DNA of 61,553 nt from Candidatus Parcubacteria bacterium (GTDB taxonomy: Bacteria; Patescibacteriota; Minisyncoccia; Phycocordibacterales; Phycocordibacteraceae). The stretch's first letter is position 1; every line of letters starts with the position of its first letter. The translations under genes were made by a program, and so were the position numbers. A model generated the notes under the pieces. That model was given only the letters and a program-made list of their open reading frames with translations. It did not search any database and was not told the DNA's origin. The stretch covers positions 1 to 61,553 of the forward strand of contig JAKFXG010000002.1 of assembly GCA_021731495.1 (NCBI GenBank), in the 5' to 3' direction. Of the stretch, positions 3,975 to 26,504 are shown piece after piece.

Positions 3975-5129
3975 ATGGGAATGAAACGCCTTGCCCCGTA
4001 TCTTGGTGTCATTGTCGCCATCGTATTTACGGTGTCTGCCGTCGCTGTTGCAAACTCGGTAACCATTCGGCTGACTCCTGTTCCAAATACGCCAGTTGCA
4101 TCCTCTACGCTTTCGGTGCGGCCCAATCTCGATGCGCCGCCCATACCGCTACCGAGTTCTGAATTGGCCGCGAACACAGAAAGCGCTTCTCCGGCGCAAG
4201 CGACATCTACCGCGAAGAAGGTGTCGCCCGCGCCCGTGTCGGCTGTTGCTCCTACCCCAGCCCCTATCCCGACCCAGCCTCAACCTTCCGCGGGGAACGC
4301 CGCTGCACTCGATGCTACTGCACTTGCACTACGCGAAGCTCTCGTAAATATCATTTGTTATGCTCCTGCAGGGGGTGTTCTGCGCTCACTTTCTGGAAGC
4401 GGCGTCATCATTGATACGAAGGGCATTATCCTCACCAACGCGCATATTGCTCAAAATTTCCTCCTGGCCGACCGCGGTGTCTCATGCTCTATTCGCGCGG
4501 GTAGTCCGGCTGTGAAAAGGTATGAGGCCGCGCTCATCTTCATTTCATCCGCATGGCTAAACGCGAACGCGAGCGTGCTCACACAATCGGCGCCGAGCGG
4601 CACGGGCGAATATGACTTTGCGCTTCTTGCTATCACAAAGAGCGCGACGGTGACACCGCTCCCTGCCCAATTCCCATTTTTGCCGCTCGCAGAGACACCC
4701 TCTCCTCCCGGCACGCCAGTTGTCATCGGTTCATACGGGGCACAATTCCTCGAGTCGAGCCAGATACAGTCTTCTCTCTTCCCCACGGTTGTTTTCGGTT
4801 CGGTGAAAAATGTATTTACATTTGGGAAGAACACTATCGACGTGCTTGCGCTTGGGGGGTCAGCGGCCGCGCAACAGGGATCTTCCGGTGGCGGCATTGC
4901 TGATGCGAGGGGCATGCTTGTGGGCACTATCACCACAAGCACAATCGAAGGCGCCACCGACACCCGCTCACTCGATGCCATTACCGCCTCCTACATTCGG
5001 GCACAATATGCGAACGAAACCGGAAGCGCTCTCGACGCGCTTCTCGCTAAACCGACGGCTGCTGCCACAGCAGACTTCGCGCCTCAAATGCCTACGCTCG
5101 AGTCGGTTATAACCGCTCATTTACCCTAA
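3975..5129 (+). CDS. membrane-anchored trypsin-like (S1/HtrA-like) serine peptidase
   Basis: N-terminal TM, Pro/Ala-rich linker, GSGVIIDTKGIILTNAHI and GSSGGGI motifs. Confidence 0.75.
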   Translation: MGMKRLAPYLGVIVAIVFTVSAVAVANSVTIRLTPVPNTPVASSTLSVRPNLDAPPIPLPSSELAANTESASPAQATSTAKKVSPAPVSAVAPTPAPIPTQPQPSAGNAAALDATALALREALVNIICYAPAGGVLRSLSGSGVIIDTKGIILTNAHIAQNFLLADRGVSCSIRAGSPAVKRYEAALIFISSAWLNANASVLTQSAPSGTGEYDFALLAITKSATVTPLPAQFPFLPLAETPSPPGTPVVIGSYGAQFLESSQIQSSLFPTVVFGSVKNVFTFGKNTIDVLALGGSAAAQQGSSGGGIADARGMLVGTITTSTIEGATDTRSLDAITASYIRAQYANETGSALDALLAKPTAAATADFAPQMPTLESVITAHLP

Positions 5130-6235: not shown

Positions 6236-6261
6236 AAAAACGGCCAAATTTAGCCGTTTTT
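6236..6261. terminator. bidirectional hairpin terminator
   Basis: AAAAACGGC-CAAATTTA-GCCGTTTTT. Confidence 0.5.
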
Positions 6262-6314
6262 GCTCAGTTTTGCATGCTATACTGCCAATCGGTGAAATTT
6301 TAAAGGAAGATCCC

Positions 6315-6500
6315 ATGCTCTGTTCGTTTGAATGTGACTGTCCTTTCGACCCGGAAACACTTGAGCGCTTGAGCGCAAAAATGAAATGCTCCAAGGACAC
6401 GACACAAGTGCTTGAGGTCATCAAAGAAGCAAATAACGCCTCTTTTGGCGGTGGCTGTTGTATACAGGTCTTGAAACTCATCCCACGAGGACTAGTCTAA
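6315..6500 (+). CDS. small Cys-rich hypothetical protein (61 aa)
   Basis: AAGGAAG SD 6 nt before the ATG; the stop codon lies in the loop of the 6486-6510 hairpin; AT-rich; no family recognised. Confidence 0.3.
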   Translation: MLCSFECDCPFDPETLERLSAKMKCSKDTTQVLEVIKEANNASFGGGCCIQVLKLIPRGLV

Positions 6501-6510
6501 CTAGTCCTCG
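6486..6510. terminator. perfect 11-bp hairpin (CGAGGACTAGT-CTA-ACTAGTCCTCG)
   Basis: Read directly; followed by TTTCGTT on the + strand; lies downstream of tRNA-Gly on the - strand. Confidence 0.45.
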
Positions 6511-6528
6511 TTTCGTTCTATAAGTCGG

Positions 6529-6599
6529 TGCGGGCAGGGATAATCGAAATCCCGTCTCATCCTTGGCAAGGACGTGTTCTACCACTGAACCATGCCCGC
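6529..6599 (-). tRNA. tRNA-Gly (anticodon GCC), no encoded CCA
   Basis: GCGGGCA acceptor, anticodon loop TTGCCAA, T arm GGGAT-TTCGATT-ATCCC. Confidence 0.9.
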
Positions 6600-6832
6600 T
6601 TCAGGCGACATGATACCATGCCACCCTTTCATTTTTCCAGTGCCCCAACCAGGATCGCGATTACGCTTATCGAAACTTACAGTTTCAGTACACTTCATTC
6701 AGCAGAATGACTCTTGGAGTACGCGGATTTTCTCTTCGCGCAAACGCTCGATAAAATGCTCGCAAAGTCTTCGATTCCTGGCCGCACGTCCCCCAGACGT
6801 GCTTCGGGGCACATCCTCGCTATGTTCGTATG

Positions 6833-6904
6833 TGCCCCGACCAGGAATCGAACCCAGAATTCGACGTCCGAAGCGTCGCGTGATATCCGTTTCACCATCG
6901 GGGC
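6833..6904 (-). tRNA. tRNA-Arg (anticodon UCG), no encoded CCA
   Basis: GCCCCGA/TCGGGGC acceptor, D arm GTGA-AACGGATA-TCAC, anticodon arm CGACG-CTTCGGA-CGTCG. Confidence 0.85.
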
Positions 6905-6961
6905 TAAAACGACACCTTGTGTCGTTCGCCCGAACATTTCACCTTGCAAAATGTTTTAGGG
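6904..6961 (+). repeat. double-hairpin palindromic element, copy e (intergenic, abuts the tRNA-Arg 5' end)
   Basis: CTAAAAC-[GACAC/GTGTC hairpin]-GTTCGCCCGA-[ACATTT/AAATGT hairpin]-TTTAGGG. Confidence 0.65.
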
Positions 6962-7021
6962 CGTACCTGCATACTACTACTAAGCGAGCCGAGACACGAG
7001 CAATTATGCTACGATTCTCAC

Positions 7022-8821: not shown

Positions 8822-9634
8822 TTATAAGAACGTTATGGAAAGAGGGCAGTGGTCCGAGCCATAAATGTCAGGGTGGATTTCTGCCTTTTTGATCCGCTTC
8901 ATGAACTCACTTGCGACGAAGAAGTAATCGATACGCCATCCAACGTTTCTATCACGCGCGCGGATCTTCATATCCCAATACGTATATGCGTCCTTAGTCT
9001 GAGGGTGGAAGTGGCGGAATGAGTCCACGTATCCCGCCGCAACGACTTCGTCTATCCACGCCCGCTCTTTCGGCAAAAAGCCTGTATTTTCTTCGTTTTC
9101 TTTCGGTCTTGCGAGGTCGATCTCCTCATGGGCCGTGTTCACATCGCCGCAAAATATGACCGGTTTCTGCTTGCGCAGCTTCTCTGCAAAGGTGAGAAAG
9201 GCATCATAATATCGCAGTTTATAGTCGAGTCGTTCGGGACCCTGGCCACCATTGGGGAAGTAGATGTTCAAGAGCCAGAAGTCTTCAAATTCAGCCCCGA
9301 TGAGCCGACCCTCCTGGTCGAATTCCCTTATACCCAGGCCATAAATGACTTTCAAGGGTTCGACCTTGGAATAAATGGCGACGCCGCTATAACCTTTCCT
9401 TAGTTGCGAGGAAGAAAAGAATGACGAGAACCCAGCAGGGGAGCGCATGGCCTCCGGAATCTGTTCGGGACTCGCTTTAGTCTCCTGGAGGCAGAAAATA
9501 TCGGGCTTGGTGCCCTTCAAAAAAGATTCCCAATAGCCATTATTTGCAAGGGAACGCAGGCCGTTTACATTCCAGGAGACGATCTTCACTGGACTATTGT
9601 AGCGCAGGTCGGGTCTAATTCCGACTTTTCCCAT
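8822..9634 (-). CDS. xth: exodeoxyribonuclease III (AP endonuclease)
   Basis: VKIVSWNVNGLRS, QETK, GDVNTAHEEIDL, SDHCPL motifs. Start taken at the Met at 9634; overlaps the Xer gene stop. Confidence 0.9.
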   Translation of the reverse strand: MGKVGIRPDLRYNSPVKIVSWNVNGLRSLANNGYWESFLKGTKPDIFCLQETKASPEQIPEAMRSPAGFSSFFSSSQLRKGYSGVAIYSKVEPLKVIYGLGIREFDQEGRLIGAEFEDFWLLNIYFPNGGQGPERLDYKLRYYDAFLTFAEKLRKQKPVIFCGDVNTAHEEIDLARPKENEENTGFLPKERAWIDEVVAAGYVDSFRHFHPQTKDAYTYWDMKIRARDRNVGWRIDYFFVASEFMKRIKKAEIHPDIYGSDHCPLSITFL

Positions 9635-10535
9635 GGTACTTCTTATGGATTTCGCGGAGGTGCGAGTCTGTGATGTGCGTGTAAATCTGCGTTGTGTTGA
9701 TAGAGGCATGGCCGAGGAGCTGCTGGACGGAGCGAATATCGGCGCCGTTACTCAGTAAGTCAGTAGCAAACGCATGGCGAAGGGTATGGGGCGTGACCAC
9801 ATTCGTAATACCGGCCCGCGTAACATATGCCTTCAAGTGGCGTTGAACGTCGCGGGGGATGATGCGATGCAATTTATTCGGCCTACCGTCTACAAAGAGA
9901 GCTTCTTCCATATCGTTTCGTGCTTTCAAGTATTCGCGTACGGCTTCTTTGGCAGCAGGGGAGAGGAAGACGACGCGCACCTTCTCACCCTTACCGCGTA
10001 CGGATAGCTCGTCGCGTGAGAGGTCAATGTCAGAATTGAGCGCGCAGAGTTCAGACACACGCAGTCCGGTTGAAAAGAGCATCTCAAGGATAGCGCTGTC
10101 TCGCAGGTACATGCGCTCTTTGTCGGGGTCTTTTGCCTTTTTAAATGCTTCTCGCGGTGCCTGCATGAGGCGCTCAAGTTCGGTAGGGGTGATTAGGTCC
10201 AGCTGTCGCTCAGGAAGCTTCGCAAGCTCTATTTTCTCAGGAGAAATGGCGGGAATATCGCGTTTTCTGAGGAATTTGAGGAAAGCGCGCAGCGCGATCA
10301 TGTAGTAATTCTGGGTCCGGCGCTTCATGGAACCGGCAGCCGTACCCGGCTGCCGGTTGAGCCAGAGCCGGAACTCGCGGACATTCTGCTCAGTGATGTC
10401 ACTCACGTCTTTTATGCCCATCTGCGCGAAATAGCGGGTGAGATACCGGTCGTAGTTTTCAATCGTTTTCACCGCGCGGCCGCGCTCGATCTCAATATGC
10501 TCAAGGAATTGGCGTTTTGCCGTCTCGGCGTTCAT
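9615..10535 (-). CDS. tyrosine site-specific recombinase, XerC/XerD type
   Basis: C-terminal HTLRHAFATDLL...GADIRSVQQLLGHASINTTQIYTH. Start at MNAETAKRQFLEHIEIERG. Confidence 0.9.
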   Translation of the reverse strand: MNAETAKRQFLEHIEIERGRAVKTIENYDRYLTRYFAQMGIKDVSDITEQNVREFRLWLNRQPGTAAGSMKRRTQNYYMIALRAFLKFLRKRDIPAISPEKIELAKLPERQLDLITPTELERLMQAPREAFKKAKDPDKERMYLRDSAILEMLFSTGLRVSELCALNSDIDLSRDELSVRGKGEKVRVVFLSPAAKEAVREYLKARNDMEEALFVDGRPNKLHRIIPRDVQRHLKAYVTRAGITNVVTPHTLRHAFATDLLSNGADIRSVQQLLGHASINTTQIYTHITDSHLREIHKKYHGKSRN

Positions 10536-10699
10536 TAAAAGTAGTTTAACACTGTACTTCGCACAATATTCAATGTTATTGATAGGTATAGTAGTCACGT
10601 GTATGATTAATCTCAGAAGCACCCTGACTCCACTTACGGATAAAGGGTCTCGTTTGTGCCAAACTTAACCCAGTAAATCCTCATTAAGGAGGAGTCATC

Positions 10700-11799: not shown

Positions 11800-12312
11800 A
11801 TGGCAGTTATCAAACATCCAGCGCAGCGTGTCGGCGTATTTATCGACACACAAAATCTCTATCACAGCGCCAAGCATCTCTACAAAGCACGTGTTAACTT
11901 CGCAAAAGTTCTCGAAGAGGCCGTCGGCGGACGCATCCTCGTCCGTGCCGTCGCGTACGTCATCTCGACTGAGAGCGGGGAAGAGTCGAATTTCTTTGGA
12001 GCGCTTACCAAGATCGGTATTGAAACAAAGGTAAAAGACCTGCAGATATTCGCCGATGGCGCGAAGAAGGCTGACTGGGACGTCGGAATCGCGATTGACG
12101 CGGTCAAAATGTCGCCGAAGCTCGATACGGTCATCATCGCTTCGGGCGATGGTGACTTCATTCCGCTTATCGAATATCTCGACATGCACGGCATTCAAGT
12201 TGAGGTCATCTCCTTTGGCAAGTCCTCTTCGGCCAAGCTCAAAGAAGCCGCGCATGCCTTCACTGACATGTGTGACGACCCCCACAAGTTCACCATCACT
12301 TCAAGAATCTAA
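11800..12312 (+). CDS. NYN-domain (LabA/DUF88-like) protein
   Basis: VGVFIDTQNLYHSAK...VIIASGDGDFIPLIEYL pattern. Confidence 0.8.
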   Translation: MAVIKHPAQRVGVFIDTQNLYHSAKHLYKARVNFAKVLEEAVGGRILVRAVAYVISTESGEESNFFGALTKIGIETKVKDLQIFADGAKKADWDVGIAIDAVKMSPKLDTVIIASGDGDFIPLIEYLDMHGIQVEVISFGKSSSAKLKEAAHAFTDMCDDPHKFTITSRI

Positions 12313-12332
12313 TACATTTTGCTTTGCAGAAT

Positions 12333-12375
12333 ATGCCACCAAAACGCCCCGCTCTGCGGGGCGTTTTGGTGGCAT
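12333..12375. terminator. perfect 20-bp hairpin with an internal terminator core
   Basis: ATGCCACCAAAACGCCCCGC-TCT-GCGGGGCGTTTTGGTGGCAT. Confidence 0.6.
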
Positions 12376-16844: not shown

Positions 16845-17114
16845 GATGACCCCGAACCCTGCGACGAATACTATGCACTGTTCGGCGATTCGGTATGTAC
16901 CCGGTCTCGTGTCTTGCGGCAGCGAGTCGGGGGATTTCGGATTTAAATCAATAGAAAAACTAGGGGAATGTGGTGTGTCTGCGAATACAAAAATGGCCTA
17001 AATACCCTGTATATAAGCCATTTCTTGAATACTTTCTTATCAGTCGATACTTGGAGTATAGCCGAGTGGGAACGGGAGTCAATTAACCCGTCCGATAGCT
17101 GTGGAGAGCGGTTT

Positions 17115-19094
17115 GTGCGCTATATTCGAACAGTGAACTACCTCGAAGGATTAAATGATGCGCAGAAACGGGCGGTGCTCGCGGTGGATGGTCCGATATC
17201 GGTTCTTGCCGGTGCCGGAAGCGGGAAAACACGCGTGCTCACGACGCGTATCTATCATCTTGTCCGGACCGGTGTTCCCGCGAACCAAATTCTTGCCGTT
17301 ACCTTCACCAACAAGGCCGCCCGAGAAATGCGCGCCCGGGTCCGCACGATGCTCGGCGAAGATACTTCCTCGGCTGTTCCTTTCATTGCCACTTTTCATG
17401 GTCTCGGACGCGAATTACTGGAAACGTACGGGAAGGTTATGGGCATCCCCCGCTTTTTCAGCGTATACGATCGCGATGATTCGGAAAAAGCGATCAGCGC
17501 GGCGCTCAAGGCGCTTGATGTTGAAGCAAAAGAACTTTCGCCGCGTGCGGTTCTGGGGCGCATCTCGCGCGCAAAAGGGGAGGGAATGAGGGCGAATGAG
17601 TTTTACGAGAAACATACACGCTCGGGATTTGGCGCACGGATCGCCGCGGAGGCCTGGCTTCGTTACGAGAAAACACTCGCCGCAGAGAAGGCGCTCGACT
17701 TCGATGATCTCATCGCCCTTCCGACGCGGATGCTCGAGGAGCATGCTGATATTCGCGCGCTTGCGCAGGAACGCTGGAAATATATTCATATCGATGAGTA
17801 TCAGGATACAAATGAGTTACAAGAAAGACTCACCAGTCTTCTTGCAGAAAAACATAAGAATCTTTTCGTAGTGGGAGACGGCGACCAGTCGATATACGGA
17901 TGGAGAGGGGCGAAGATGGAAAACATTTTGAATTTTGAGAAAAGATACCCAGGATCTCAGACGATTATTCTCGAACGGAATTACCGTTCGACGAAAAATT
18001 TGGTTGATGCGGCAAACGCGGTTATCGAAAAGAACAAAAATCGCAAGGAGAAATACTCAACGACCGAACGCGCCGCGGGCGCGCCTATTGTGGTCCATAT
18101 GGCGCAAAGCGCCGAGGACGAAGCGCGTTGGATTGCACTAAAAATACGGGAGCTGATGAAAAGCGGGGCTACTCCCCTAAACGCGCCGCGAAGCGGCGCG
18201 TCGGGCGAACAGGTAAAACCTGTTTTAGCCGAAGAAATTGCGATATTATTTCGTACGAATTTCCAATCGCGTGCACTTGAGGAAGGATTGCTTCATGCGG
18301 GCGTGCCCTACAAGTTGCTCGGTACGCACTTCTTTGCGCGCAAGGAAGTGAAAGATGTTCTTGCATGGGTGCGACTCGCGATGGACCCTTCACGCGAGGT
18401 GGATAAGCTTCGCGCGGCGGCTTCACCATCGCGGGGTATCGGGAAAGTAACGCTCGGAAAACTTGCCGCGGGGCAGCGCTCTCTCCTGCGTGCGGGCGAG
18501 CTTGCGAAGGTTGAACAGTTTGAAAGTGTTATCGACGAACTTTCTCAGGCCGCACACTCATTAGTACCTTCTGAATTCGTGAAGCTCATCATTGAGAAGA
18601 GCGGCATGCGCCGGGCCCTCCTTGAAGAGGGGAGTGCGGATGACCGTGAGCGTTTCGAGAACGTTGAGGAAATCGCTTCAGTGGCTGCGCGACACGATGC
18701 GGTTGCTGGGCAGGAAGGTATCGCCGCCTTTCTCTCTGAAGCCGCACTGTCGAGCGATCAGGATGAGATGGATCAAGGAGAGAAAACCGGCGTCACTCTC
18801 ATGACCGTTCATGCGGCAAAGGGTCTTGAATTCGGAACGGTTTTCGTGAGCGGTATGGAGGAAGGGCTCTTCCCGCACCAGGGCATGGGTGGAGAGAAAG
18901 ACCGTGACGAAGAAGAGGAGCGTCGATTATTCTACGTGGCGATGACGCGCGCAAAAGAAAGGCTCTTCCTCACACTCGCGCGTATCCGTAAGATTTATGG
19001 CACTGATTATGCGGCAGAACCGTCGTCTTTTCTTGCCGACATCGACGGATCGCTGACGCTCTTCGATGAAACAGAGGGAGAAGAGATCTATTGA
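17115..19094 (+). CDS. UvrD/PcrA/Rep-family ATP-dependent DNA helicase
   Basis: LNDAQKRAV, AGAGSGKT, VTFTNKAAREM, DEYQDTN, VGDGDQSIYGWRGA, TVHAAKGLEF motifs. GTG at 17115 follows GGAGAG. Confidence 0.9.
   Translation: MRYIRTVNYLEGLNDAQKRAVLAVDGPISVLAGAGSGKTRVLTTRIYHLVRTGVPANQILAVTFTNKAAREMRARVRTMLGEDTSSAVPFIATFHGLGRELLETYGKVMGIPRFFSVYDRDDSEKAISAALKALDVEAKELSPRAVLGRISRAKGEGMRANEFYEKHTRSGFGARIAAEAWLRYEKTLAAEKALDFDDLIALPTRMLEEHADIRALAQERWKYIHIDEYQDTNELQERLTSLLAEKHKNLFVVGDGDQSIYGWRGAKMENILNFEKRYPGSQTIILERNYRSTKNLVDAANAVIEKNKNRKEKYSTTERAAGAPIVVHMAQSAEDEARWIALKIRELMKSGATPLNAPRSGASGEQVKPVLAEEIAILFRTNFQSRALEEGLLHAGVPYKLLGTHFFARKEVKDVLAWVRLAMDPSREVDKLRAAASPSRGIGKVTLGKLAAGQRSLLRAGELAKVEQFESVIDELSQAAHSLVPSEFVKLIIEKSGMRRALLEEGSADDRERFENVEEIASVAARHDAVAGQEGIAAFLSEAALSSDQDEMDQGEKTGVTLMTVHAAKGLEFGTVFVSGMEEGLFPHQGMGGEKDRDEEEERRLFYVAMTRAKERLFLTLARIRKIYGTDYAAEPSSFLADIDGSLTLFDETEGEEIY
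18175..18228 (-). repeat. double-hairpin palindromic element, copy c (54 nt, in frame inside the helicase gene)
   Basis: Its reverse complement reads CTAAAAC-[AGGT/ACCT]-GTTCGCCCGA-[CGCGCCGC/GCGGCGCG]-TTTAGGG. Confidence 0.7.
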
Positions 19095-19097
19095 AGA

Positions 19098-19439
19098 TTA
19101 AGCAGCTTCTTCTTCGTTGTGTGGTTTTGGCGGCGGGACATCTTTGATTTTGAGGAGGTCTTTTAACGACTCTTCGATAACCTTTCTTTCCTTTGGTTTA
19201 AGGTCATGCCGACCTTCGTAGTGGTTATCTAAAAAATCTAATGCCATGTCGACGTGCTTATCCTGCATTCCATACTGCAAATCTCGTTTTCTTTCTACAT
19301 GAGAGACAGCAGCCTTCGTCGCCTCGTTAACACGAGCGCGTCCTTGCTCGTTTAAACCGGCAAGATGTTGTAAGTGAGTAAACCTCTCGCGTGCCGGCCC
19401 ATGCTCAAGACTTACTTGTGTAAGTTTGCGGTTGTTCAT
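19098..19439 (-). CDS. hypothetical charged protein (113 aa)
   Basis: Uninterrupted ORF convergent with the helicase and divergent from rsmA. No motif recognised. Confidence 0.45.
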   Translation of the reverse strand: MNNRKLTQVSLEHGPARERFTHLQHLAGLNEQGRARVNEATKAAVSHVERKRDLQYGMQDKHVDMALDFLDNHYEGRHDLKPKERKVIEESLKDLLKIKDVPPPKPHNEEEAA

Positions 19440-19461
19440 ACAACCAGTATTGTACATCGAT

Positions 19462-20313
19462 ATGATGCGCGCCAAAAAATCGCTTGGGCTAAAACCATCA
19501 GTGCATCTGATGGTTCGCCCGACGCGTCGCCGGGCGGCGCGTTTAGGGCAAAACTTTCTCATGCACGCACGTATTGCGGAGCGCATAGCGCTCGTTGCAC
19601 AGCTTGCACCGGATGCAACGGTATTTGAAATCGGTCCGGGAACGGGCATGCTCACGCGAGAACTCCTAAAGCGTGCGGGCAAAGTAATTGCCCTTGAAGC
19701 GGATTACGAACTTTTCGAAAAGTTACGGACTGAATTTTCGTCTGAAATTGCGGACAATCGTCTCGAACTCATGCACGGCGACATACGCACGTTTGATATT
19801 TCGACGCTCCCAAAAGGGTACGTGCTCGTCGCGAACATTCCGTACTATCTCACGGGCGAAATATTCCGCATGTTCCTCGAATCAGAAAATCAGCCGAGTG
19901 CGATGACACTGCTCGTGCAAAAGGAAGTTGCCGAGCGCATCGCTCGCTCCAAAAAAGAAAGTATTCTCTCCCTTTCGGTAAAGGTGTATGGCACACCGAA
20001 GCGCGAATTTGTGGTACCTCGCGGAGCGTTCAGGCCGGCACCAAATGTGGATTCCGCGGTGCTGACCGTCCGTAATATTTCACGAAATAATTTCGCATCC
20101 CGTAGCGAAGAAGAACGATTTTTCGCGCTGATACATGCAGGATTTGCGCATAAACGGAAGTTCGTGCGCACAAACCTTATTGATGCTGGATTGATTCCGG
20201 CTAAAACCGCCGGAGGCGATTCGCCCGACGCGCCATTGAATGGCGCGTTTAGGGAGAAAGCGCGTGCCGAGGATGTCCCACTCTCCACATGGCTTATTCT
20301 TTGTCGTCTCTAA
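19462..20313 (+). CDS. rsmA: 16S rRNA (adenine1518/1519-N6)-dimethyltransferase
   Basis: LGQNFL, EIGPGTGMLT and NIPYY motifs. Carries two repeat-element insertions. Confidence 0.9.
   Translation: MMRAKKSLGLKPSVHLMVRPTRRRAARLGQNFLMHARIAERIALVAQLAPDATVFEIGPGTGMLTRELLKRAGKVIALEADYELFEKLRTEFSSEIADNRLELMHGDIRTFDISTLPKGYVLVANIPYYLTGEIFRMFLESENQPSAMTLLVQKEVAERIARSKKESILSLSVKVYGTPKREFVVPRGAFRPAPNVDSAVLTVRNISRNNFASRSEEERFFALIHAGFAHKRKFVRTNLIDAGLIPAKTAGGDSPDAPLNGAFREKARAEDVPLSTWLILCRL
19489..19548 (+). repeat. double-hairpin palindromic element, copy a (60 nt, in frame in the rsmA N-terminus)
   Basis: CTAAAAC-[CATCAG/CTGATG]-GTTCGCCCGA-[CGCGTCGC/GCGGCGCG]-TTTAGGG. Deleting it joins KSLG to QNFL. Confidence 0.75.
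20201..20254 (+). repeat. double-hairpin palindromic element, copy b (54 nt, in frame in the rsmA C-terminus)
   Basis: CTAAAAC-[CGCC/GGCG]-ATTCGCCCGA-[CGCGCCAT/ATGGCGCG]-TTTAGGG. Confidence 0.7.
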
Positions 20314-20379
20314 TGCACATGTACACGTAGATAGTCCCTATCTCCCGGCAGTGCGACTGTTATACTTGAGAGCGATACC

Positions 20380-21420
20380 ATGGGGGAAGGAATATTTAAA
20401 AATTGGCGGGTTTTAGTCTCAACACTCTTTTCGGTGGTACTTGTTGTCGGCGCATTCGTGCTTGCACGCGGTATTGAATCGCCTCCTATCGCGCAAGCGT
20501 CAGCCGAGGCCGCACTTTTGGGCGCGATTGCAGTGAAAGATTCTGACGCGGACGGCCTCCCCGACTGGGAGGAGGGACTTTATGGTACCGACCCGCGTAT
20601 TACCGACACGTCAAAACTCGGCATGACCGATGGTCAGGCAGTCGCCCGCGGCCTCATCGTGCCGAGGGCCATCGCCAATATCTCCGTCGCGACCTCATCG
20701 CCCAGTACGCCGCTTATTGTAGATAGCTCACTGCCGCCTGCGCCCGCGGAAGGTACGCTCACGGCCGCCTTTGCGAAGAATTTCTTCACCATGTACCTCT
20801 CTATGAAGGAGTTGAAAGGGGGCGCGGATCTCACTGAAGCCGACATGCAGGAGGTCGCGAGCCAGGCTCTCAGCACTCTTTCGGAAGCCATCACCATCGC
20901 GCCTGATTTCAAATCCGCAAAAGATCTCAAAATCTCTGGTTCAGGAGCGGAGGCTCTCAAAGAGTTCGCGGTGAACGCAGAAGCAATACTTCTGAAGAAT
21001 AAGAGCAGTGCTTCAAAAAGCGAACTGCTCTACTTACAAGATGCGGTTCAGAACAACGATGCTACAGGGCTTCCGCACATAGACTCGATCGCCAGGGCGT
21101 ATCGGGATTCCGCGGTCGGGCTCGCCGTACTTCCTGTGCCGCAGGAACTTGCATCAGCCAACCTTGCACTCATTAATGCGCTCATGCGTGTGAGCCAGAT
21201 CTCCGGCGACTTCGTGCAAGTGAACACTGATCCTCTCGTGACCATATTGGCTCTTCAGCAGTATTCGCCGGCGGTGCTTGCGCTCGGCACCGCGTTTAAA
21301 GACATTGGAGAAGTCTACAAAACCGCCGGCATATCGCTTGCCGCAGGAACGCCGGGCGCGTCTTTCGTGAATCTCATTACCGATGTCGCAGACAAGCAGG
21401 CAGCTGCTAAGAAACTATGA
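20380..21420 (+). CDS. hypothetical membrane-anchored extracytoplasmic protein
   Basis: N-terminal TM WRVLVSTLFSVVLVVGAFVLA; a DSDADGLPDWEEGLYGTDP (thrombospondin type 3-like) motif. Confidence 0.7.
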   Translation: MGEGIFKNWRVLVSTLFSVVLVVGAFVLARGIESPPIAQASAEAALLGAIAVKDSDADGLPDWEEGLYGTDPRITDTSKLGMTDGQAVARGLIVPRAIANISVATSSPSTPLIVDSSLPPAPAEGTLTAAFAKNFFTMYLSMKELKGGADLTEADMQEVASQALSTLSEAITIAPDFKSAKDLKISGSGAEALKEFAVNAEAILLKNKSSASKSELLYLQDAVQNNDATGLPHIDSIARAYRDSAVGLAVLPVPQELASANLALINALMRVSQISGDFVQVNTDPLVTILALQQYSPAVLALGTAFKDIGEVYKTAGISLAAGTPGASFVNLITDVADKQAAAKKL

Positions 21421-23135
21421 CCACGCGACCTTTTGCCGCGGCACTCGCAGTAGTTCTTACGATCTCCTTCGCCGTACCAGCCGCATTTTTCGTGGCGCCA
21501 CCGAAGGCGCAGGCCATATCGGTAGAAGTGGTTGGCGATATTTCCTTTCCCTCGAACATCAAGACGATGATAGAGAGCACCATCACCGCTATTAAAAGCA
21601 CTTTGTCGGCTGCGCTCGACGTCACGAACACCGCGGCAACCGTGGCGATGGAAATCAATGAATACATTCTTCAACCCCTTGCCTTCGTTCTTTCGGGAAA
21701 TCTACTGCGACTCATTACCGCTGGCGTCATAGCATTCGTCATCGGCAAGACGAACGGGACAGGTGTTCCTCAATTCGTCACTGACGTCGCATTGTCTCTC
21801 CGGACGGTCAGCGACTCGCGGGCGCTCATGTTTCTCAATCAGTACGGCCGGTATTCGAATTCTCCCTTTGCCGGGGCCATATCCTCTTCTCTGCGCAACA
21901 ATTACCTCAGTAAGACGAGTCTTGCCGGATTCTGGGCCGCCAATATGAATACGCTTGCGCGGTCGTCGCCAAATGTGAATGCGTACCTTAATGGCAATTG
22001 GTCGCAGGGTGGCGTGGCCGCATGGTTCGCACTCACAACTCAGACTCAGAATAATCCCTACTCGCTCCACCAGAATTCGCAGGAACGACTCGCTAGTCTC
22101 ATCGGCCCGGGTATCGGAGGCGCCACGGGAGCGCGCATCGCGGAACTTGGCTGGGGGAATGGTTTCACTTCGTGGTGCGGTAGTATCGGTGCCTCATATA
22201 CTCCGGGAGTAAGTGGGTCGGGTGTTAACCCTGGAGACCCTTGTATCGATAAAGATGGTAACCCGGGCATAATTAGGACGCCCGGCTCGGTCATCGTCGC
22301 GGCTCTCAATAAAGTCCTCGGGGGAGAACAGGATCAAGTGGTCCGAATGGGTAATGTAGGTCCCGAGATCACGGGAATCCTGAGGAACATCGGGACCGTT
22401 ATGCAGACGGTTAATTTTGCGTCCTCAATCCTCGGTGGCCCCGGCTCAGGCGGCCTTCTCGGTGCCGGACAGCCGTATGGATCAAACCAAAATTCACGAC
22501 TCATGCAGTATCAGGCTACACCAAGCCTTGGTGTCACCAACTCCACTGTATTTAAAAATTCGGCAACACTGCACGTGTCCGGCCCGGACATGCTACTTCG
22601 TGTGGCCGAGTACGAGGCGTCGTGGAACACGATCAGAGCCGCGGCAAACGGAGCATCTGTTTCAGTTACGAGTCTCATGAATTCGTGTACCGCCGCCGCC
22701 AATTCCGGATCAGACAATCAGGCCTTTATAGACGCGAGCGCCGCACAAGCAGCCGCTGCGCAAGTTGCGCTCTCGACGCACATCGCTCCCGTGCTCGCTC
22801 AAGCGGCAGCCGCGAGCACGACGATCGCGAATGCGCGTGCGGAGGTCCAAAGAATCCAGACCAATCTCACTTCCGGAAGTAACACGGCAAATGGCACCTA
22901 CGCGACTGATATACAAATACTTCAGACCCTGTCTCCGACCGCACTTGACGTCGCAAATATCTACCAAGAAGCACAAGCTTTCGGCACGGCCGCCGCAAGT
23001 CCCAGCGGGTCGCTCGTAGTTTCAGGAGGGTCAATCATTGACCGGATGAGTCTCCTCAGTACGAATGCAGCGGCACTGAAACCGGTCTGTCTCGAGTCTA
23101 CATATAGAAGCTCGAATCGGAGCGAGAGAGATTAA
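21417..23135 (+). CDS. hypothetical secreted protein (572 aa)
   Basis: Signal peptide ending AQA; start overlaps the upstream stop (ATGA); Ala-rich coiled C-terminal third. Confidence 0.7.
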   Translation: MTTRPFAAALAVVLTISFAVPAAFFVAPPKAQAISVEVVGDISFPSNIKTMIESTITAIKSTLSAALDVTNTAATVAMEINEYILQPLAFVLSGNLLRLITAGVIAFVIGKTNGTGVPQFVTDVALSLRTVSDSRALMFLNQYGRYSNSPFAGAISSSLRNNYLSKTSLAGFWAANMNTLARSSPNVNAYLNGNWSQGGVAAWFALTTQTQNNPYSLHQNSQERLASLIGPGIGGATGARIAELGWGNGFTSWCGSIGASYTPGVSGSGVNPGDPCIDKDGNPGIIRTPGSVIVAALNKVLGGEQDQVVRMGNVGPEITGILRNIGTVMQTVNFASSILGGPGSGGLLGAGQPYGSNQNSRLMQYQATPSLGVTNSTVFKNSATLHVSGPDMLLRVAEYEASWNTIRAAANGASVSVTSLMNSCTAAANSGSDNQAFIDASAAQAAAAQVALSTHIAPVLAQAAAASTTIANARAEVQRIQTNLTSGSNTANGTYATDIQILQTLSPTALDVANIYQEAQAFGTAAASPSGSLVVSGGSIIDRMSLLSTNAAALKPVCLESTYRSSNRSERD

Positions 23136-23140
23136 CCACT

Positions 23141-25510
23141 ATGCGCCGCTTTCTTACCGCACCACTCATCGCTCTCGCGCTTCTTATAAGTGCGACGGGC
23201 GCGTACGCGTCTGTCGCGCTTGCGCAAACTGCCGCCGATGCCGCTACTAACGCCGCTATTGATTCTGCCCAAGCCCAACAAGCCGATGCCGCCGCCCGAG
23301 CCGCCATGGAAGCAGGTGAGACCCAAGATAATGCCGAATGGGCCGCCAGGACCATCGGTCCGGAACCCAACAAGACCGTGACCGAACCGAAAGAGACCAA
23401 AGACGAGGCCTTTGGATATGTCATGACCAAGATCATGAGCCTGTTTGCGTGGCTTCTTGGCGTTGCGATAATTACGCTCGACTATGCAGTGTATTACACC
23501 GTAGTCACCATGGGTGACTTCGTGAAGGATCTTTCAGCCGTTGGTATCACCTGGCGCATATTGCGAGACATCGGGAACATTATGCTGATATTCGGCTTCC
23601 TTGCCGTCGGCATCACCACCATCCTGAACGTGGATTGGTATGGAGGGGGGAAGAAGATGCTGCCGATGCTTCTCATCTCTGCTGTCTTCCTGAATTTCTC
23701 GCTCTTCATATCCGAAGCGGTTATCGATACGGGCAATCTCTTCGCGACGCAGTTCTACACGCAGATCAAGGGGGGCAGTATTCCATCAAGCCCCTCAGTG
23801 TCTCAGGAGGCGATTGAAACCGAGGGCATCTCGAACAAGATCATGGGACAATTGGGACTTCAGACCATCTACACCGCAGGTAGGGTTAACACAGAGGTCT
23901 TCAAAGCCGGAAATACATGGCTCATCGGCTTTATGGGTATTTTGCTTTTCATGACCGCCGCATTCGTGATGTTCTCTCTCGCATTCATACTCATCGCGCG
24001 TTTCGTCATACTTATCTTCCTCATTATTCTCGCACCGATCGGTTTTGCGGGCCTCGCGGTTCCTAAACTGTCGAGCACAGCGAGTAAGTGGTGGAGCACT
24101 CTTTTTGAGCAGACCATCACCGCACCGGTCTTGTTTTTGATGCTCTATATTGCGCTTGCGATCATTACGGATGTATCGTTTCTCAGCGGAATCTGCTCCT
24201 CTTCTTCCGGAACGACCTGTTCGAAAGACTGGACAGGATTTGTGAATAACAACGACTTGTCCGGTTTCTCGAGCATGCTGCTCTCCTTCCTTGTGGCAAT
24301 GGGGCTCCTTCTTGCCGTCACCGTTTTCGCGAAAAAATTATCCGCCTTCGGTGCTGGCATGGCAACAAAAGTTGCCGGTGCACTTTCGTTTGGTGCAGTT
24401 TCGCTTGGGGGTAGAGCAACACTTGGTATGACCGGTAACTTATTGGCCAACAAGCGCATGCAAAGTTGGGCTCGGAGCAGTAGTGGTAAGTGGGGAAGTC
24501 AGTATCTGGCGAGAGCTGGAGTGTTCGCGGGTAAGGGACTCCGGAGCTCAACGTATGATGTGCGCAATATGCCGGGCGCAACTGCTGGTCTGGGGGCTCT
24601 TGGTATTGATGCTGGAAAGGGGGCAACCATTACAGCGAAACAAGCACATGACGCTCAGTACGGTGTGAAGCCGATCAAAGAATACTTCAAACATTCGGCA
24701 GAAGAACGCGAACAAGCCGGGCGCGAAATTGATTTCAAAGATGCGCAGGCAGACTTTGCGGCAGGTAGAATTACTCGAGCTGCTTACGACTCAATCGTTG
24801 CACCTGTACTTTCGAAAATGTCGACAAAGCAGCTTGAAGAACTTGGTGGCATTAAGAAGGGTGTGGATGCTCTCGTGGATAATCTTTCACCACAGCAGTT
24901 TGAATCACTTATGAAGAGCGATAAGTTGAGTGAAGCGGAAAAGGACAAGATAAAGGAAGCACGGTATAGAACTCTTTCTAACGCTGTTGCCACTGGCAAT
25001 ATTCCGGATATCAAGAAGGCAATTAACTCCTTTAGTAAGGGGGAACTTGAAGCAATGCCTGCCGACTTGCTCACTCATCAGAATCCTGCAACGGGCCAAA
25101 GACTTATTCTTGAACAACTTTCGGACAAACAAAGAGAAACCATAATTGAAAGTAAGGAGCGTACGGCTGCAGAGAAAGATTTGGTACGCAAATCCAGCCC
25201 AGGTGGAAGTGTCGAGGACATATTTAATACTGCCGGTGGCGGTGCGGCAGGCGCGGCTGCGGTGGCGTGGAGTCCGAATTTCGCGCGTCTTACTGTTCCG
25301 CAACTTGCAAAACTCCATAAAGACATTTTGCTACAACCAGCAGTCGCAGAAAAACTTACAACTGCAACTCTTATAGAGCTCCAAGAGCAAAAGAAACTCA
25401 CGCCCGCAGAGATGATTGCCATCGGCAACCATATCCGTGGGTCGGTAATAGCAAATCAAAAAACCAAAGATTATGTAACTACAGGCCCTGGGGCTGCTCT
25501 ATGGGCATAA
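23141..25510 (+). CDS. polytopic membrane protein with a large soluble C-terminal domain (tentatively TrbL/VirB6-like)
   Basis: Signal peptide, about 7-8 hydrophobic segments between residues about 95 and 440, then about 330 hydrophilic residues. The family assignment rests on architecture only. Confidence 0.7.
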   Translation: MRRFLTAPLIALALLISATGAYASVALAQTAADAATNAAIDSAQAQQADAAARAAMEAGETQDNAEWAARTIGPEPNKTVTEPKETKDEAFGYVMTKIMSLFAWLLGVAIITLDYAVYYTVVTMGDFVKDLSAVGITWRILRDIGNIMLIFGFLAVGITTILNVDWYGGGKKMLPMLLISAVFLNFSLFISEAVIDTGNLFATQFYTQIKGGSIPSSPSVSQEAIETEGISNKIMGQLGLQTIYTAGRVNTEVFKAGNTWLIGFMGILLFMTAAFVMFSLAFILIARFVILIFLIILAPIGFAGLAVPKLSSTASKWWSTLFEQTITAPVLFLMLYIALAIITDVSFLSGICSSSSGTTCSKDWTGFVNNNDLSGFSSMLLSFLVAMGLLLAVTVFAKKLSAFGAGMATKVAGALSFGAVSLGGRATLGMTGNLLANKRMQSWARSSSGKWGSQYLARAGVFAGKGLRSSTYDVRNMPGATAGLGALGIDAGKGATITAKQAHDAQYGVKPIKEYFKHSAEEREQAGREIDFKDAQADFAAGRITRAAYDSIVAPVLSKMSTKQLEELGGIKKGVDALVDNLSPQQFESLMKSDKLSEAEKDKIKEARYRTLSNAVATGNIPDIKKAINSFSKGELEAMPADLLTHQNPATGQRLILEQLSDKQRETIIESKERTAAEKDLVRKSSPGGSVEDIFNTAGGGAAGAAAVAWSPNFARLTVPQLAKLHKDILLQPAVAEKLTTATLIELQEQKKLTPAEMIAIGNHIRGSVIANQKTKDYVTTGPGAALWA

Positions 25511-25514
25511 ATAT

Positions 25515-26504
25515 ATGGACGATACTATTACAAAAGAACAGGTGTTGAATGCCTACAATAATGCGCCAGATTTCGTTCGCGCCGCATTCAACGACGAAGT
25601 AACGACCCAGGTAGTTGTGGGGTTAAAGGCGAAATTCCAACTTCACATCGATATGGCCGGCATCCTTGCTAAGGAAGTGGGATACTTGCTTCTCGGTGTT
25701 ATCGATCCAGATACGTTTGCAAAACGCCTCAAGACTAGTGGTTTTTCTGAACAGATGGTTACAGAAATTATGGCCGAGCTCAATCAAAAAGTATTTGTTC
25801 CCCTGCGAACAAAAATGAGACGTGAGGGAGTAGAGACGGGCCAGACACCCGCTCCTGTCGCAAAGGTTCCACAACAGAGACCGATGGCGCCGCCGCCAAC
25901 TCCCACGGTAGGGGGAGTCTCCTCCTATTCTCCGCCTTTGCAGTCCCCGCGATATTCATACCCAGAGAATCCAATGCCTACCCAACCCCAGTATCAATCT
26001 ATTTCTAAGATCGCACCCTTGCCGCCGAAAAATGTGCTCCCACGCCCACCTTCACTTCCAGCTGTAGGAGGGTCACGCCCGGTTTCGGGACAAGTTCCAA
26101 AGCCAATGGACGCGAGCAGAATGCTCGAAGACCATGAGGAGCCGCATATCGAATTCAATAAAACACCTCCTGCGCCTGGTGTTCCTGTACGGGAGAAAAG
26201 AGTGGAAACGCCGCTCGGACAAGCATTGCGAACGGTGATGCCCTCAGTGCCTCCCACAAATCTTCCGGGCGTCATGCCAAAAAGTATCGCTCCCGGCGCT
26301 CGATACTCCTCATATACGGTCACCCCAAAGGCCAGCCCGGTTACTCCACCCATTCCCCCGAAACCAATTCCTCCCGTTACCCCTCCTGCTCCCCTAAACG
26401 CTTCGCCACGCGAGGCACCGGGCGAACATTATGCAAAGCAGAATGTTGTAGCCGCCAAACCCTATTCGGCCGACCCCTACCGCGAACCAATTGATGAAAA
26501 ATAG
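25515..26504 (+). CDS. hypothetical protein, about 100-aa N-domain then a long Pro-rich tail
   Basis: ORF tightly linked to the upstream gene. Carries repeat copy d near its C-terminus. Confidence 0.65.
   Translation: MDDTITKEQVLNAYNNAPDFVRAAFNDEVTTQVVVGLKAKFQLHIDMAGILAKEVGYLLLGVIDPDTFAKRLKTSGFSEQMVTEIMAELNQKVFVPLRTKMRREGVETGQTPAPVAKVPQQRPMAPPPTPTVGGVSSYSPPLQSPRYSYPENPMPTQPQYQSISKIAPLPPKNVLPRPPSLPAVGGSRPVSGQVPKPMDASRMLEDHEEPHIEFNKTPPAPGVPVREKRVETPLGQALRTVMPSVPPTNLPGVMPKSIAPGARYSSYTVTPKASPVTPPIPPKPIPPVTPPAPLNASPREAPGEHYAKQNVVAAKPYSADPYREPIDEK
26392..26451 (-). repeat. double-hairpin palindromic element, copy d (60 nt, in frame, diverged)
   Basis: Its reverse complement reads CTACAAC-[ATT/AAT hairpin]-GTTCGCCCGG-[GCCTCG/CGAAGC]-GTTTAGGG. 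Confidence 0.55.

Follow-up and report, generated by a model that had tools for sequence, protein, structure and literature searches.

The window analyzed here, a stretch of 61,553 nucleotides (nt) from a Candidatus Parcubacteria bacterium (contig JAKFXG010000002.1, positions 1 to 61,553, forward strand; assembly GCA_021731495.1), carries repeated copies of a short element built from two hairpins. Two of the copies lie inside rsmA (19462 to 20313, + strand), the gene of the 16S rRNA dimethyltransferase, whose Pfam RrnaAD match (E = 8e-41) covers residues 27 to 239, exactly the span between both inserts. The founding copy (19487 to 19548, +) is in frame near the RsmA N terminus, where it encodes LKPSVHLMVRPTRRRAARLG. 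It consists of GG (19487 to 19488), the left terminal repeat CTAAAAC (19489 to 19495), hairpin 1 (19493 to 19515), the center GCCC (19517 to 19520), hairpin 2 (19522 to 19542), TTTAG (19542 to 19546), and a second GG (19547 to 19548). The second rsmA copy (20199 to 20254, +) is in the sense orientation in the C-terminal linker and is read as AKTAGGDSPDAPLNGAFR. Two further copies are antisense to their host genes. One (18175 to 18230, −; read as PLNAPRSGASGEQVKPVLA) lies in a UvrD/PcrA-type helicase gene (16968 to 19094, +; Pfam UvrD-helicase and UvrD_C), the true start codon of which is probably downstream of 16968, the proteins of relatives being 657 to 664 amino acids (aa) long. The other (26392 to 26453, −; read as PLNASPREAPGEHYAKQNVVA) is near the C terminus of a proline-rich open reading frame (ORF) without a Pfam match (25515 to 26504, +). 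The remaining intact copy (6902 to 6961, +) is intergenic and abuts the 5' end of a tRNA-Arg(tcg) gene (6832 to 6904, −), which is regenerated by the end of the element. Measured from CTA to GGG, the intragenic copies (in the order given above) are 60, 54, 54, and 60 nt long, and the intergenic copy is 58 nt long. Among the source sequencing runs, SRR10388085 and SRR10388072 contain this locus.

A first-pass annotation of this DNA had reported five copies sharing one architecture, and all five were confirmed in position and structure; its boundaries are corrected here in that the left-hand GG of each window copy is part of the element logic. The window contains four exact matches to the pattern CTAAAAC-N(8-24)-TTCGCCCG-N(14-28)-TTTAGGG, and 100 dinucleotide-preserving shuffles contain none; the copy at 26392 departs from this composite pattern only by its CTACAAC. 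The central motif TTCGCCCGR occurs five times in the window, each time within a copy. A covariance model built from seven equal-length copies recovers the five at 43 to 80 bits (80.4 for the founding copy, 56.2 for the second rsmA copy, 67.1 in the helicase gene, 74.1 in the proline-rich ORF, and 43 beside tRNA-Arg), together with a decayed, intergenic sixth copy (12307 to 12370, +; 30.6 bits, E = 7e-07), so that the density in the window is about 1 per 10 kb. The sixth copy sits between an NYN-domain gene (11800 to 12312) and the next ORF; its hairpins are intact and its conserved blocks are mutated to CTAATAC, ATGCCACC, and TTTTGGT. Its hairpin 1 is similar to hairpin 1 of the copy at 26392, and its GC-rich hairpin 2, followed by TTTT, may be a present-day terminator. 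The statement that hairpin 1 is always closed by AAC...GTT does not hold for the copy at 20201, where the closing C of AAC faces an A (the orthologous copy in a relative, L124, has a C-G pair). Translation bore out that the four intragenic copies are read without a stop in three combinations of frame and orientation, which give LKP..LG, AKT..SPD..FRE, and PLNA..SGE..VLA (twice).

Distribution and architecture of the family

In species-representative genomes, an exact-pattern scan matched at least 119 stretches, almost all from metagenome-assembled genomes (MAGs) of Patescibacteria, with about 3 chance matches estimated. Almost all of the matches listed were in MAGs labeled Paceibacterota/Parcubacteria (Nomura-, Kaiser-, Vogel-, and Zambryskiibacteria and Minisyncoccia), Patescibacteria, or "Saccharibacteria," and among the matches listed were also one labeled Gracilibacteria and two short contigs labeled Micrarchaeota and Elusimicrobia; taxon assignments are MAG labels as recorded. 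The covariance model added 15 copies with diverged blocks in the same loci, and a metagenome scan yielded 27 loci with variant centers. A phage origin was rejected, as a scan of a viral collection gave a single match. The "five-member family" of the first-pass annotation is therefore real in its five copies but too narrowly drawn, since the window holds a decayed sixth copy and the family is Patescibacteria-wide and mostly intergenic. A failure to find further copies, or a match rate like that of shuffled sequence, would have spoken against the family; neither was seen. Rfam searches returned only tRNAs at gathering thresholds and nothing at E ≤ 10 over positions 18100 to 20400. The suggestion that such a palindromic family was undescribed for the Candidate Phyla Radiation (CPR) agrees with the literature searched, in which we found no description of one and no paper linking palindromic, miniature inverted-repeat transposable element (MITE), or repetitive extragenic palindromic (REP) elements with CPR.

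Elements are 43 to 70 nt in size and are bounded by a terminal inverted repeat of 7 bp (CTAAAAC/GTTTTAG), outside which the same dinucleotide stands at both ends. When either half is read inward along its own strand, it has the form NNN-TA(N)A-[stem-loop]-TC-N'N'N'; 169 such units were found on both strands within full elements. Conservation is restricted to the nucleotides at the feet of the hairpins (about 20 nt), and the stems are Watson-Crick palindromes of free sequence. The foot tetranucleotide is TAAA, with the variants TACA and TAGA, and the AAC/GTT closing pairs covary too (TAAAGC..GCTC and TAAATC..GATC). Across 128 copies, both hairpins have median stems of 8 to 9 bp and loops of 3 to 4 nt, compared with stems of 0 to 1 bp in shuffled segments. 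In the model alignment, 97.3% of the cells are paired (62.6% when shuffled), two-sided changes number 721 (212 when shuffled), and the covariation score is 0.678 (0.144 when shuffled), a value reached by none of 500 shuffles. However, G·T accounts for only about 31 of 2,118 pairs (approximately 1.5%), one-sided changes are almost absent, and the opposite strand folds equally well. The stems are therefore DNA palindromes rather than an RNA helix under selection, and the covariation described at first pass stands as compensatory change that is Watson-Crick only and by itself implies no RNA structure. In one MAG, the 4-nt loops of both hairpins occur in either orientation (AGTA or TACT), independently of each other. 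The stem palindromes may be kept perfect by templated correction.

Units also form chains that share one dinucleotide (GG-unit-CC-unit-GG-unit-CC at loci L064 and L105), and full tandems occur at L102 and L113. Structural variants include a three-hairpin copy (L050:3780-3868) and nested forms in which hairpin 2 contains a second CC-TAGA-AC...GT-TC-GG module (L010:2048-2115, L028:2871-2932, and L077:3668-3737). The left flanks of insertions are rich in T and the right flanks in A.

The repeated dinucleotide obeys a rule that connects it to the center of the element. The general form is XY-[CTAAAAC-hairpin 1-GTTCG]-Y'X'-[CGAAC-hairpin 2-GTTTTAG]-XY, in which the center is the reverse complement of both flanks and XY is GG in the window. 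Judged by sequence covariation, the center is complementary to both flanks in all consensus copies and in 19 of the 27 variant loci. Diverged copies read GCC...GGCC...GGC (L079) or GGT...ACCC...GGG (L095 and L010). The variant loci came from a targeted metagenome scan restricted to mutated centers (GTTC-G[AGT]CC-GAAC). With the center GGCC, both flanks were GC as predicted in all 11 loci. With GTCC, both were GA as predicted in 6 of 11 loci, one flank agreed in 2, and neither agreed in 3. With GACC, both were GT in 2 of 5 loci and neither was in 3. Overall, one flank agreed in 2 loci and neither in 6. Most of the failures retain the ancestral GG (or GC) at both flanks, which is what a recent point mutation in the center would leave. 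It follows from this covariation that the flanking dinucleotide is not an arbitrary target duplication and is instead specified by, or coinherited with, the center. By analogy, the GC, GA, and GT variant subfamilies look like natural reprogramming of the target.

Insertion into protein-coding and RNA genes

We conclude that this is a DNA-level, dinucleotide-specific, polymorphic insertion element. Deletion of positions 19489 to 19548 restores K-S-L-G-Q-N-F-L, as proposed at first pass, and the same junction is found at the nucleotide level in three syntenic relatives and in most of the 120 closest RsmA homologs (70 to 85% identity), which read KKS-LGQNFL uninterrupted and lack the N-terminal insert. 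The 20-residue segment is thus lineage specific. The few homologs that share it are P0007 (verified at the DNA level) and three more with a ...TRRKAAR-LG tail. The second RsmA site is mostly empty among the 120 homologs, with at least five sense copies (AKTA.GGSPDAP..AFRE) and at least four antisense copies (PLNA..SGEQ..PVLA).

The sites were compared at the nucleotide level by aligning the syntenic loci of four relatives. RsmA site 1 reads CTC-GGG-CAG where empty (L123, L124, and L125) and CTT-GGG[element]GGG-CAA where filled. At site 2, the closest empty relative (L123) has TTT-CCA-GAA, and the window with its insert deleted has ATT-CCG-GAG (I-P-E), which places the sense insertion at the GG of CC-GG-AG. 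In L125, an antisense insertion occupies the CC of the proline codon. Because the two insertion points are 1 to 2 nt apart, this site was hit independently in both orientations. The UvrD site (18175 to 18230 in the window) is an empty AAG-CCC-GAA in L124 and L125, and in L126 (approximately 4200 to 4300) it carries a 9-nt in-frame footprint, ATTTTAGCT (residues ILA), which resembles an element end and looks like the remnant of an internal deletion between both terminal repeats. At these three sites, filled and empty orthologs differ by the element plus one dinucleotide, and the empty sites of close RsmA and UvrD relatives carry a single GG or CC. Near-identical copies were also found at different loci within one MAG. 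Host sites recur: the junction between LG and QNFL of RsmA is filled in L113 too, PheS has three sense copies after DTFW and one antisense copy four residues farther downstream, and a tRNA-binding domain was entered twice. The essential genes entered include rsmA, uvrD, pheS, and nusA.

Copies that stay in place are well conserved. At rsmA site 2, the window and L124 agree at 51 of 54 element positions (94%) and at 502 of 716 positions of the coding sequence outside the elements (70%). Between the window and L126, the element is 78% identical at site 1 and 80% identical at site 2, where the center in L126 is decayed; the corresponding coding sequence is 65% identical. Intact copies may be under constraint at the nucleotide level, or they may be renewed by reinsertion or conversion. 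Selection on the peptide was rejected as the reason for conservation, since at least three frames and both orientations are in use.

A 194-aa antisense ORF (19098 to 19682, −) extends across the founding copy and the start of rsmA. Between uvrD and rsmA, a gene of 113 to 120 aa is called on that antisense strand in relatives, and the founding insert may lie near or within the 5' region of this gene. Downstream of rsmA, four successive large ORFs (346, 572, 789, and 329 aa; 20380 to 26504, +) have no Pfam match, and their gene order is kept in the relatives L001 and L126.

Within genes, the element appears to be read through. The reading frame is open for at least 150 nt on both sides of 23 of the 53 copies whose length is a multiple of 3, of 3 of the 32 copies with one extra nucleotide, and of 0 of the 33 copies with two (23/53 versus 3/65; Fisher p = 3e-7). 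When copies of the other two length classes are deleted, long ORFs reappear at no higher rate than after control deletions of L+1 or L−1, where L is the copy length. Excision as an intron or from RNA was rejected on this ground, and the intragenic copies are therefore read through rather than spliced. The copies that survive in genes are almost always stop-free multiples of 3 and, as judged from their sequence, add 15 to 23 residues. Frames containing GGC-TAA, or CCC-TAA on the other strand, are never used internally. In about 11 of 37 tandem-gene cases, the upstream gene takes its stop codon from the TAA of the element. By a cruder gene call, 37 of 132 copies (about 28%) are intragenic and the majority are intergenic. 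Both orientations are found in genes and between genes, and the intergenic copies have no strong bias toward convergent, divergent, or tandem contexts or toward one orientation.

The element is also concentrated at the ends of RNA genes. Of 170 elements, 34 abut the end of a tRNA or transfer-messenger RNA (tmRNA) gene within 0 to 2 nt, where rough arithmetic gives an expectation of about 0.4; 22 are at tRNA 5' ends, 7 at tmRNA 5' ends, and 5 at tRNA 3' ends (L034, L035, L110, L121, and L152). According to ARAGORN and Rfam, the tmRNA 5' end coincides exactly with the element end in L003, L008, L026, L036, L062, L079, L097, L100, and L129. A decayed copy occupies the same place in L149, and none is present in L018 or L070. 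Thus, 10 of the 12 tmRNA genes in the sampled loci have an element, in a sample that is biased toward elements. Several of these copies have an older, decayed copy directly upstream, the mark of a spot that has taken insertions repeatedly. The flanking dinucleotide (GG, CC, or GC) coincides with nucleotides 1 and 2 of the RNA gene, except in five cases, where it coincides with nucleotides 2 and 3 and the terminal G of the element serves as G1; the window tRNA-Arg is one of these, with the last G of the inverted GTTTTAG as G1 and CC as nucleotides 2 and 3. Insertion at the 5' end of an RNA gene is harmless because the gene-side XY, sometimes with the terminal G, rebuilds that end. A given tRNA species (e.g., tRNA-Glu GGCCCTAT) has the element beside it in some genomes and lacks it in others. 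Either targeting or selection could account for the enrichment; targeting might be directed at the first G/C dinucleotide that follows a T-rich leader or at single-stranded DNA of highly transcribed genes. At L079 (3889 to 5163), about 1.15 kb bracketed by a GC-type and a GG-type element separates smpB from the tmRNA gene, and other genomes have almost nothing at the equivalent place. A small ORF with GIY-YIG-like motifs (identified by eye) lies at the end of this insert, and its last codons run into the element.

Mode of movement and rival explanations

On balance, we favor the view that these copies represent a miniature, noncoding, nonautonomous mobile DNA element, a doublet of inverted REP-like hairpins comparable to bacterial interspersed mosaic elements (BIMEs) and to REP doublets forming hairpins (REPINs), that works as folded single-stranded DNA. 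It was probably moved in this folded form by a trans-acting enzyme. Insertion takes place at a single XY dinucleotide, after which XY is found on both sides. In the mechanism that we propose, the center would close each hairpin by pairing with a flank, the left one on one strand and the right one on the opposite strand. The closed hairpin would present the point of cleavage and joining to a structure-specific enzyme acting in trans and would thereby set the target dinucleotide. Such a logic would be that of the guide/cleavage-site pairing of the IS200/IS605 insertion sequences (ISs) and of the processing of REPs and BIMEs by Y1 (HUH) transposases of the REP-associated tyrosine transposase (RAYT) type. 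More tentatively, and with the odds somewhat against it, the element could be a self-guided transposon whose central 2-nt guide programs a Patescibacteria-wide enzyme. The GG, GC, GA, and GT lineages would then be reprogrammed forms, tRNA and tmRNA starts would be preferred targets with rebuilt 5' ends, and in-gene copies would be under nucleotide-level selection. If true, this would be a mobile-element logic not yet described, merging REP/BIME architecture, IS608-style guiding, and protein tolerance in the style of Rickettsia palindromic elements (RPEs).

Several observations weigh against the single-stranded mobile element that we favor. The loci examined yielded no mobilizing enzyme. When 901 ORFs from about 150 element-centered loci were clustered, no neighbor family was convincingly tied to the element. 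The clusters comprised smpB (13 loci), which recurs because of the tmRNA link, a family at 14 loci that often adjoins smpB, and XerC-like recombinases, RAYT-like Y1 proteins, and putative LAGLIDADG-like helix-turn-helix (HTH) proteins at 4 loci each. The Y1/RAYT-like genes (L031, L042, L049, and L127) are flanked by their own genome-specific hairpins without the element motif, and by rough arithmetic their 4 loci near the element are not a significant excess over the approximately 1.5 expected. No full-length autonomous version with the same ends was seen among the loci examined. The conserved blocks of the large copy sets are partly imposed by the consensus search patterns, and translation of the inserts is deduced from their sequence. 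The orthologous rsmA copy is far better conserved than its host gene, which could reflect a host-level function rather than pure selfishness. Finally, XY borders filled sites at either end and is single in empty ones, and the target resembles the joined ends of the element; these features would also fit a 2-bp crossover.

Other candidates for a partner or parent were considered. A search for an autonomous parent among ORFs between neighboring copies (L010, L047, L079, and L023) and among solo half-units gave only housekeeping genes, the small ORF with GIY-YIG-like motifs, and chains of one and a half elements. In the window, the XerC/D-like recombinase, YraN/UPF0102, NYN-domain, and Exo_endo_phos proteins were considered, and none is specific to the element; genes similar to that of the XerC/D-type tyrosine recombinase (9615 to 10622, −) occur at 4 of about 150 loci, which is not clearly above chance. 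The RAYT-like genes have Pfam Y1_Tnp matches and score below the cutoff of NCBIfam REP_Tyr_transpos. Those at L031:5759-6496 and L042:1398-2134 are flanked on both sides by one genome-specific perfect hairpin (e.g., CCATAGGTCAGACCTATGG), which also occurs in frame within the transposase gene, where it is read as HRSDLW (L031) or YRGLTSV (L042). With this RAYT-associated hairpin, CPR genomes have a second type of in-frame palindromic repeat, one of simpler build. Proteins of about 230 aa that share an HTH_23 domain at the N terminus and the motif "LYWAEGSK" (L086:5011-5715 and 6238-6987, L028:280-987, L062:4176-4841, and L152:1684-2430) form a recurrent family, which has no Pfam match beyond the HTH and, judged by eye, may be a LAGLIDADG-type homing endonuclease. 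The member in L062 adjoins a tRNA gene.

The crossover just mentioned belongs to a rival in which the same element moves as double-stranded DNA through a circular intermediate, carried by a serine recombinase or transposase. The joined ends, GTTTTAG-XY-CTAAAAC, would form a palindrome at which crossover takes place over a 2-bp core, with any XY as a possible target, much as in IS607, which ends in GG and inserts at GG without duplication (PMC6188088). The repeated dinucleotide, the preference for element ends and their lookalikes as targets, the sharing of one XY in tandems, and the T-rich left and A-rich right flanks all fit, and the center GTTCG-CC-CGAAC likewise resembles a palindromic site around a 2-bp core. 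However, this scheme does not predict the complementarity between center and flanks and leaves unexplained why hairpin potential is kept in stems of free sequence and length, whose variable spacing would alter duplex geometry. IS607 also lacks terminal inverted repeats, and no serine recombinase recurs near the copies at the roughly 150 loci. We consider this rival unlikely, although it is the strongest of those weighed. Still less probable, in our estimation, is a host-selected cis element that is occasionally copied, such as a module that serves tRNA and tmRNA genes as a leader, in processing, or as an insulator, or a REP-like site bound by a nucleoid or topology protein. The 34 copies at tRNA and tmRNA ends, where either orientation presents hairpin-GTTTTAG directly upstream, the high share of tmRNA genes with an element in the element-biased sample, the conservation of the foot nucleotides across distant lineages, and the identity of 94% against 70% at rsmA would all suit such a role. 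On the other hand, the same tRNA species and tmRNA genes occur without the element, the decayed copies stacked upstream of intact ones at tmRNA genes are typical of an insertion hot spot, orientation relative to transcription is random, and many copies break coding sequences at unrelated places, some of them decaying (site 2 in L126 and the window copy at 12307).

That the element is a structured RNA, whether a small ribozyme, a mini-intron removed from mRNA, or a member of a family of small RNA genes, has very little probability in our judgment, even though the folds of four copies are far more stable than shuffles (z = −2.5 to −4.8) and compensatory stem changes are massive. Selected RNA helices normally use G·U pairs and one-sided changes, whereas here G·U makes up about 1.5% of pairs and one-sided changes hardly occur. 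Both strands fold equally well and both orientations occupy genes, in-gene copies are in frame and stop-free, deletion of out-of-frame copies restores no ORF, and no Rfam match was found even at E ≤ 10. Archaeal bulge-helix-bulge motifs, kink-turns, and known ribozymes were rejected by inspection, with both 3-nt bulges on the same strand of a 4-bp helix and no Rfam match. As for integron attC sites, only the AAC/GTT triplets resemble their R boxes, and the rest of RYYYAAC/GTTRRRY does not match. Chance palindromes, convergent terminators, or assembly artifacts can be dismissed almost entirely. The TTT after hairpin 2 and the TTTT after hairpin 1 on the reverse strand do make these hairpins resemble intrinsic terminators, but terminators are not expected within essential ORFs or to obey the center-flank rule, none of the 100 shuffles matched the pattern, and hundreds of copies come from independent assemblies.

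Relation to known elements and significance

The element is most closely filed with palindromic repeats and MITEs; it has RPE-like behavior, BIME/REPIN-like architecture, and an IS608-like apparent guide logic. The center-flank rule is undescribed, and the element has an unusual preference for the dinucleotide with which tRNA and tmRNA genes begin. Like RPEs, it is a short palindrome inserted in frame in coding genes, including essential ones, where it is read through and adds a peptide. It likewise occurs between genes and beside RNA genes, and its presence varies among relatives. The RPE-like behavior suggested at first pass is thus supported as in-frame, read-through insertion with lineage-specific presence. 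RPEs are about 100 to 150 bp long, fall into families defined by sequence similarity, and are not known outside Rickettsia. In contrast, the present element is 43 to 70 nt long, conserves only about 20 foot nucleotides with free stems, has a dinucleotide flank matched to its center, and has hosts across Patescibacteria. With classical MITEs (Correia/NEMIS, RUP, and ERIC), it shares small size, a noncoding and multicopy nature, terminal inverted repeats, a short flanking repeat, and the lack of a transposase gene; it has the generic MITE traits, presence/absence polymorphism included. Classical MITE copies are alike along their full length and derive from an identifiable IS, whereas the copies described here have no conserved internal sequence and no known parent IS, and it is the element that specifies its 2-nt flank.

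The architecture is closest to that of REPs and BIMEs. REP units are hairpins of 30 to 40 nt with a conserved tetranucleotide at the 5' foot (GTAG, compared with TAAA here) and a required irregularity near the stem, and BIMEs are inverse pairs of such units joined by a short linker, so that each strand carries one unit per sense (PMC3333891). BIMEs are cleaved on both strands and amplified in tandem, forming arrays, and a single-stranded DNA substrate, exposed for example by transcription, has been proposed for them (PMC3333891). The differences are that REPs are extragenic and have stems conserved within a species and that RAYT genes always have their REPs on either side. The present element enters ORFs and tRNA starts (about 28% of copies are intragenic), has hypervariable stems and no GTAG-type tetranucleotide, and uses as its linker a 2-nt "guide" complementary to the flanks; no RAYT gene flanked by it was seen among the loci examined.

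With IS608 of the IS200/IS605 family, the element shares subterminal hairpins of the kind recognized as single-stranded DNA structures. IS608 cleavage and target sites are recognized by pairing with guide sequences beside the hairpins, and targeting can be reprogrammed through the guide (PMC3201880, PMC5934647); in the present element, guide pairing is suggested by sequence covariation. IS608 is strand specific, with asymmetric ends, a 4-nt target on the left only, and no terminal inverted repeat, whereas the element is 2-fold pseudosymmetric, with one central dinucleotide serving both ends and the same dinucleotide on both sides. IS607 has GG at its termini and an invariant GG at its target without true duplication, consistent with exchange over a 2-bp core (PMC6188088). 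The element is similarly flanked by GG at a GG target, with nothing duplicated beyond it. IS607 differs in having multiple subterminal direct repeats and TnpA with or without TnpB, and it has no hairpins, terminal inverted repeats, or center-flank complementarity.

The center-flank rule offers a testable hypothesis, namely, nucleic acid-guided site choice with just two guide bases, and a handle on the enzyme through co-occurrence profiling. Together with the covariance model, it allows inserts to be masked in CPR gene calls and used as strain-level markers. The element accounts for some of the lineage-specific protein insertions that complicate the annotation and alignment of CPR sequences. 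The prevailing view of CPR/Patescibacteria genomes is that they are streamlined and contain little mobile DNA; a family that enters essential genes and the starts of tRNA and tmRNA genes alters this picture.

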